From assembly GCF_053078305.1 (NCBI RefSeq), contig NZ_CP166875.1: a stretch of DNA of 64,000 bases. One strand, given 5' to 3'. The notes beneath the pieces were generated by a model. It was not told where the DNA came from. It worked only from the letters and a program-made list of their open reading frames with translations, and ran no database searches. This DNA is from a plasmid. Below, one piece after another: positions 48,848 to 49,068 of this stretch; position 1 is the stretch's first letter, and each line of letters starts with the position of its first letter. The translations under genes and the position numbers were made by a program.

Positions 48848-49026
48848 TGACACAGGGCTGGCGGGAGGATAAATGCCCGTCTGTCCGCGCCGGGAAAAAA
48901 CCGCGCGCCGGTGGCGCTGAAAGGGGCCGCGCTCACGCGCCGCCCCTTTCATTACGCGGACGTTCTGATGGGGGCTTCTGTCTTTTCAGACCTGTCATTT
49001 GTCTGTTACTGATGATGTTGTTGTTC

Positions 49027-49068
49027 CTGCTACTGCTACTGCTACTGCTACTGCTACTGCTACTGCTC
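49027..49068. repeat. hexanucleotide microsatellite (CTGCTA)x7
   Basis: Read directly; absent from paralogous positions at 45740 and 54720. Confidence 0.9.

Follow-up and report, generated by a model that had tools for sequence, protein, structure and literature searches.

The window, a stretch of 64,000 nucleotides of plasmid DNA (contig NZ_CP166875.1, assembly GCF_053078305.1), carries a tandem array of the hexanucleotide CTGCTA between a methyltransferase gene and ssb. The array lies in the leading region of an F-like conjugative plasmid, the part that is transferred first. Pfam searches identified on the + strand the genes for an antirestriction-domain protein, a DUF3560 protein (46876-48237), a class I SAM methyltransferase, ssb, a DUF905 protein, a ParB-like protein, psiB and psiA. 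The features relevant to the array are the following.

45737-46379, + strand: copy 1 of a ~640-bp repeat, with a 5′ edge devoid of array
48284-48847, + strand: class I SAM-dependent methyltransferase gene (Pfam MTS and Methyltransf_25; annotated in PLSDB), the upstream neighbour of the array
48918-48951, + strand: GC-rich inverted repeat with 15-nt arms, 93% complementary, then TTTCATT (inverted-repeat search)
49012-49026, no strand assigned: triplet runs (ATG)2 and (TTG/GTT)2-3, immediately 5′ of the array and also length-polymorphic
49027-49067, no strand assigned: perfect hexanucleotide array (CTGCTA)x6.8 (Tandem Repeats Finder), (TAGCAG)n on the transferred (minus) strand
49068-49089, + strand: pyrimidine-rich tail CTCTTCTTTTTCCTGCCGCTCTGA, ending in a TGA common to all relatives; the likeness to the other repeat copies begins here
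49070-49713, + strand: repeat copy 2, beginning right after the array, with a core hairpin at ~49431-49620
49730-50251, + strand: plasmid ssb gene (Pfam SSB, E = 3e-37)
54713-55356, + strand: repeat copy 3, with a 5′ edge devoid of array
57949-57970, − strand: oriT nic-type motif TTTGCGTAGTGTGTGGTGCTTT, one match with 2 mismatches, versus 0 expected by chance

The oriT match was obtained with the F nic sequence as reference. Because the motif is carried by the minus strand, this strand is the one transferred and also serves as template for the leading-region genes. Such a use of the transferred strand as template agrees with the Frpo model (PMC9849209, PMC11541004). The motif corresponds to the R100/R1-like variant TAGTGTGT/GGTGC and not to the F variant GGGGTGT/GGTGC. 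As judged from its sequence, this variant suggests an R100-type relaxase specificity.

Three full copies of the ~640-bp repeat and a partial fourth one (55715-55813) are found in the window. In copy 2, the 3′ 470 nucleotides (49261-49727) are 95% identical to the region upstream of ssb defined as Frpo2 in plasmid F (PMC9849209), and 90.5% identical to Frpo1. The array abuts this copy on its upstream side, ~195 nucleotides away from the Frpo-homologous segment and ~460 nucleotides away from the core hairpin (inverted repeats I1 and I4). The GC-rich inverted repeat at 48918-48951 was left uncalled by a consensus terminator scan. It is probably a terminator or a stem-loop 3′ of the methyltransferase gene. 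A homologous hairpin is present at the paralogous edge of copy 1, which also shares a CT-rich tract; the similarity between copies therefore reaches weakly to the left of 49070.

Several other elements were observed in the same region. A hok/sok-type module (54116-54446) is located 5 kb from the array; it comprises an Rfam sok match above the gathering score (54116-54287, 95 bits) and a Hok-like ORF of 53 aa (54285-54446). The partial fourth repeat copy, also of Frpo type, lies directly upstream of a 95-aa ORF (55831-56118) whose size and position match ygeA of F, and full copy 3 is separated from the partial copy by an inserted 100-aa ORF (55373-55675). Rfam also gave a sub-threshold match to AS-pc01, antisense to pHK01_035, at 46499-46599 on the minus strand (68.7 bits, E = 1.6e-10; the gathering score is 79).

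The array itself was described by Tandem Repeats Finder as a period-6 repeat of the unit CTGCTA with 6.8 copies, 100% matches and a score of 82. Reading the letters gives six full CTGCTA units followed by CTGCT. What could be counted as a seventh unit is CTGCTC, position 49068 being the first base past the perfect run. The earlier note, which had described seven units up to 49068 preceded by a short GTT run, was thus right to within one base and its count is a fair rounding of 6.8. Ahead of the array, ATGATG is read at 49012-17 and then (GTT)x3 at 49017-25. When the window was simulated 200 times with a first-order Markov model, the maximal period-6 run was at most 18 nucleotides long (mean 13.9), as compared to the 41 nucleotides observed. 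The CTGCTA array is a genuine microsatellite, beyond chance. Nowhere else in the 64-kb window, on either strand, are two or more CTGCTA units found in a row. As had been proposed, the array sits at the 5′ edge of the repeat upstream of ssb, copy 2 starting at 49070 and ssb at 49730, and is present in this repeat copy only. The corresponding edges of copies 1 and 3 read ...CTGCTGCTCTGA and ...CCTGCTCTGA, with no array.

Other perfect tandem repeats in the window are a 29-nt duplication (33615-33673), an 11-nt unit in 3.4 copies (22025-22061) and a 10-nt unit in 2.9 copies (28377-28405). G/T-rich imperfect arrays of 11-13 nt at 41390-41541 might be iterons.

The number of units was then compared across related plasmids, as the earlier note had suggested. 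Megablast of the locus against PLSDB returned at least 5000 matching records, whose spans differ in 6-bp steps. Twenty-seven related plasmids were fetched and their arrays read directly, giving 28 sequences including the window. The 27 plasmids contain from 1 to 15 full CTGCTA units, as compared to 6 in the window. The full-unit counts are 1, 1, 1, 2, 2, 3, 4, 4, 4, 5, 5, 5, 6 (four times), 7, 7, 8, 8, 9, 10, 11, 12, 12, 13, 14 and 15. The only interrupted allele, CTGCTACCGCTA, is short, being one of the two cases with 2 units. Three flank haplotypes were distinguished.

Haplotype A: flanks as in the window; 1-15 full units
Haplotype B: four substitutions to the left of the array and CTGTTC/CTGCTG variants to its right; 1-10 full units
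Haplotype C: another module downstream of the TGA; 1-9 full units

In all four groups of plasmids having identical 400+400-nt flanks, the members differ in unit number (7/12/13/14, 6/15, 5/6 and 6/9), a proportion that overstates the rate because the plasmids were picked partly for their differing spans. The closest set is formed by L021, L022 and L023, with 12, 13 and 14 units and 0 mismatches across 700 + 650 nucleotides of flank. The triplet runs vary in the same way: ATG is found once or twice and TTG zero or two times among the plasmids, and all other indels here are whole units of these runs. Since plasmids identical in their flanks differ only in unit number, both slippage and variation between isolates are supported. 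The slipped-strand expansion proposed earlier is therefore backed by whole-unit differences of one to nine on identical flanks, including the 12/13/14 series. The proposed variability between isolates is borne out by the 1-15 units seen in the 27 plasmids on three flank haplotypes; invariance of the repeat number is clearly absent. From these sequence comparisons, we consider it firm, in qualitative terms, that the array would mutate faster than point substitution does, and recurrently. The return of lengths on all three haplotypes lends indirect support to an elevated slippage rate.

The locus is widespread. Left flank and array were recovered at ≥80% coverage in 2360 of 5426 RefSeq complete E. 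coli genomes, and the locus also occurs on plasmids of Klebsiella, Shigella and Salmonella. In evenly spaced samples from PLSDB and from the complete E. coli genomes, the locus span ranged from about 33 bp below to 54 bp above that of the window; in the E. coli sample it was 245-317 bp, as compared to 263 bp in the window. Particular alleles turn up repeatedly among independent records: four have 15 units, and about thirty have the length of the window. Four isolates derived from one parent had the same span, and the array is therefore stable on the laboratory time scale.

Insertions were also noticed at the locus. In L028 (NZ_CP024852.1), a group II intron (ltrA) lies ~55 nucleotides downstream of the array, within the repeat (equivalent to ~49117-49123 of the window), and IS110-family elements are found beside or within the locus in L006 and L016. 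The GC-hairpin-rich segment seems to attract insertions.

In order to evaluate a possible coding role, the open reading frames crossing the array have to be considered.

48847-49089, + strand: 80-aa ORF reading the array as CTG-CTA, (Leu-Leu)n; its ATG overlaps the methyltransferase stop (TGATG); "hypothetical protein" in RefSeq relatives
48999-49259, + strand: 86-aa ORF reading the array in the GCT-ACT frame, (Ala-Thr)n; overlaps the 80-aa ORF; hypothetical in relatives; judged spurious
49012-49089, + strand: 25-aa mini-ORF, MMLLF(LL)nLFFFLPL and stop; a candidate that is probably no gene

A small membrane peptide could be encoded here with the array as its hydrophobic core, corresponding either to the 25-aa mini-ORF or to the ORFs of 66-98 aa, with slippage tuning the length of a poly-leucine transmembrane helix. 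Consistent with this idea, the CTG-CTA frame is open up to the conserved TGA, the sequence M(M)LLF(LL)nLFFF(F)LxL and its stop being intact in 28 of the 28 sequences, also where another module lies downstream. In addition, the TGATG overlap of the 80-aa ORF with the methyltransferase gene would fit translational coupling, and a comparable hydrophobic mini-ORF, MELFLMLLLFFSLLL and stop, is found in copy 1. All observed length changes preserve the frame, as is automatic with units of 3 and 6 nucleotides.

A strong SD-ATG was also seen in the segment 48863-48920, where GGGAGGATAAATG is located in a hairpin loop just past the methyltransferase stop. From its ATG runs a 15-aa ORF whose TGA lies at the base of the GC hairpin 48918-48951. 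The 1-nt deletion that haplotype B carries at window position 48901 fuses GGGAGGATAAATG in frame to the poly-Leu sequence, which also speaks in favor of translation.

However, the N-terminal two thirds of the 80-aa ORF are not conserved as a protein. The same deletion of haplotype B frameshifts the upstream part of this ORF, and its ATG is missing in L016 and L017. Across the 180 nucleotides upstream of the array, the 30 variable sites are distributed 12/10/8 over the codon positions, with no third-position excess, whereas the methyltransferase gene has 54 variable sites out of 564, distributed 12/15/27. Variability thus amounts to 17% of sites in the former segment (30/180) as compared to 10% in the neighbouring gene. 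The frameshift, the lost ATG, the flat codon-position pattern and a variability exceeding that of the methyltransferase gene led us to regard the 80-aa ORF as probably non-coding. This ORF moreover runs through the GC hairpin 48918-48951. The mini-ORF has no Shine-Dalgarno sequence, and its reading of the array places CTA, the rarest leucine codon of E. coli, at every second codon. Copy 3 and the edge of F Frpo1 retain the pyrimidine tract and not the ORF. Pfam and NCBIfam gave no match for the 80-aa ORF, the 86-aa ORF or the mini-ORF. Finally, a range of 5 to 35 leucines is implausibly wide for a functional helix.

Annotation of these ORFs in many records counts in favor of a coding role. PGAP calls the 80-aa ORF in many relatives, at lengths of 66-98 aa that follow the array, and calls the Ala-Thr ORF too; the mini-ORF (41 aa) is called in L023 only, and other records carry no ORF here. 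This unevenness suggests gene-caller noise in a CT-rich, stop-poor sequence. Because a second + frame is as open and as annotated as the first one, open frames here reflect the CT-rich composition. Overall, a coding function of the array appears unlikely, and the RefSeq "hypothetical proteins" that overlap it, with their (Leu-Leu)n and (Ala-Thr)n tracts, are probably annotation artefacts. Among L001-L023, at least a dozen WP_ accessions represent these overlapping ORFs, and only the count of Leu-Leu or Ala-Thr pairs distinguishes them. Annotation is also variable for a 68-aa ORF across the Frpo hairpin, which some records call "single-stranded DNA-binding protein" and others "hypothetical".

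Hydrophobic peptides of leading regions are a possible point of comparison. Like the type I toxins Hok, FlmA and SrnB and the Ibs-type peptides, the array could code for a short, very hydrophobic peptide. It differs from them by its extreme length variability and by the lack of a family match, of a Shine-Dalgarno sequence and of any antisense-RNA or fold-back signature. A genuine micro-protein, M(M)LLF(Leu-Leu)nLFFFLxL, with the array as its variable part and with translation either coupled to that of the methyltransferase gene or started at the SD-ATG of haplotype B, is in our view quite improbable. If such a micro-protein did exist, slippage would create a plasmid population encoding transmembrane helices of varied length in the first DNA entering the recipient.

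Single-strand DNA promoters of the Frpo/ssi type were reportedly described by Masai and Arai in 1997. They are documented for F and ColIb-P9 (Couturier et al. 2023, PMC9849209), and class 1 ssDNA promoters have been defined (PMC12672017). The earlier note had proposed that the array could change the spacing to the downstream element. The array might thus be a tunable spacer for the single-strand promoter module or for ssb expression, one route being altered pairing of the left flank (48966-49019) with the ssb ribosome-binding region, in the transferred strand or in read-through mRNA. Two stretches of the left flank, of 20 and 16 nt, indeed show 75-80% complementarity to the ssb RBS region at 49700-49730, ~700 nucleotides downstream. 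In the predicted minimum-free-energy fold of the transferred strand (T-strand), the whole module is closed by this pairing, which disappears in the model with 15 or more units.

However, such a degree of complementarity is modest for a GC-rich region of 1 kb, and this pair is one of the 14 found. The long-range pairing, predicted by both the fold and an inverted-repeat search, was dropped as a candidate because the four left-flank substitutions of haplotype B have no compensatory changes near ssb. The array was largely unpaired in the T-strand model. When 0, 1, 3, 6 or 10 units were modelled, 223 of 223 repeat pairs were kept, so that the predicted core structure would be the same from 0 to 10 units. 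With 15 or 20 units, 207 of the 223 pairs were kept, weak closing pairs being lost. Across the modelled unit numbers, the predicted fold energy changed by ≤3.7 kcal/mol out of -226. The natural alleles range from 1 to 15 units with no apparent preferred length. In plasmid F, the array is missing and the genes upstream of ssb are different, the methyltransferase arrangement being absent, and F Frpo2 is active in vivo, that is, without array or left flank (PMC9849209). A spacer function is thus very unlikely. With an array located outside the Frpo segment, no promoter and a modelled fold unchanged from 0 to 10 units, the idea of a spacing effect on the downstream element was not sustained. The 11-mer TGATGGGGGCT was also observed as a direct repeat at positions 48966 and 49690.

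An origin of the length differences in sequencing or assembly errors is hardly credible: some long-read assemblies are error-prone at short tandem repeats, but every difference is an exact multiple of a perfect unit with clean flanks, independent records repeat the same alleles, arrays of ≤96 bp fit inside short reads, and the variation is seen in PLSDB as well as in RefSeq complete genomes.

Other regulatory roles were examined. The long Frpo hairpin restores the -35 and -10 boxes in the transferred strand, and the array might be part of it. This was discarded, as most of the array is predicted to stay unpaired in the T-strand fold, ~460 nucleotides from the core hairpin; in contrast to the elements of Frpo/ssi promoters, it is outside both the homologous segment, which starts at 49261, and the predicted core hairpin, and it is missing in F and in copies 1 and 3. 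Contingency loci of Neisseria, Haemophilus and Campylobacter resemble the array as hypermutable simple repeats located beside genes or nominally inside them. However, the unit here has 6 nucleotides, it does not lie between -35 and -10 boxes and no promoter-like site is near, so that an on/off effect cannot be derived. No sigma-70-like promoter was found in 48200-49800, hence none spanning the array, and Rfam gave nothing at the locus at E ≤ 1. A unit length divisible by three also makes the array unable to act as a frameshift switch. On the basis of the 6-nt unit and the lack of promoter-like sites in 48200-49800, a contingency locus was rejected. Iterons or other protein-binding repeats (Rep, ParB/ParR), with units of ~10-22 bp in conserved number and spacing beside the gene of their binding protein, are not compatible with a 6-nt unit in 1-15 copies. 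A ParB-type site was rejected too, since F has the same ParB-like gene yet lacks the array.

The array compares best with the bacterial VNTR and microsatellite loci used in MLVA typing. Shared properties are a perfect, short head-to-tail unit, changes by whole units, lengths recurring across backgrounds and a short interrupted allele. It differs from these loci, which are chromosomal, by its position in the leading region of a conjugative plasmid. A search of the accessible literature for this repeat sequence and for tandem repeats in IncF leading regions returned no description.

Altogether, we consider it likely that the array is a non-coding, fast-evolving VNTR, changing by whole-unit slippage and probably neutral. 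The spacer that contains it is bounded by the stem-loop 3′ of the methyltransferase gene on one side and by the Frpo2-type module upstream of ssb on the other. The array would have grown from the proto-repeat CTGCTACTGCT by slipped-strand mispairing, and some plasmids still hold this proto-repeat, with 1.5-1.8 units. Whole 6-nt units would then be gained or lost through slipped-strand mispairing during DNA synthesis. Perfect units, whole-unit polymorphism, lengths that recur on independent backgrounds and the short interrupted allele all argue for slippage. In E. coli, MutHLS repairs loops of up to about 4 nucleotides, and six-base loops may evade this mismatch repair. Single-stranded passage at each conjugative transfer, with copying of the template, could offer extra opportunities for slippage. 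It is a possibility that slippage occurs mainly during this single-stranded passage, in which case array length would record transfer history. Changes in length would alter an unstructured spacer only, with no gene switched on or off, and are probably selectively neutral.

Overall, the array appears as a VNTR of the typical bacterial kind, found at a location that is unusual and very widespread, and it leaves the view of leading-region biology unchanged. It accounts for dozens of RefSeq "hypothetical protein" accessions, which most likely represent translated non-coding repeat sequence. Because it changes faster than its flanks, the array could be a cheap, high-resolution marker. With the caveat of homoplasy, it could serve to separate otherwise identical F-type plasmid backbones in outbreak and transmission studies.
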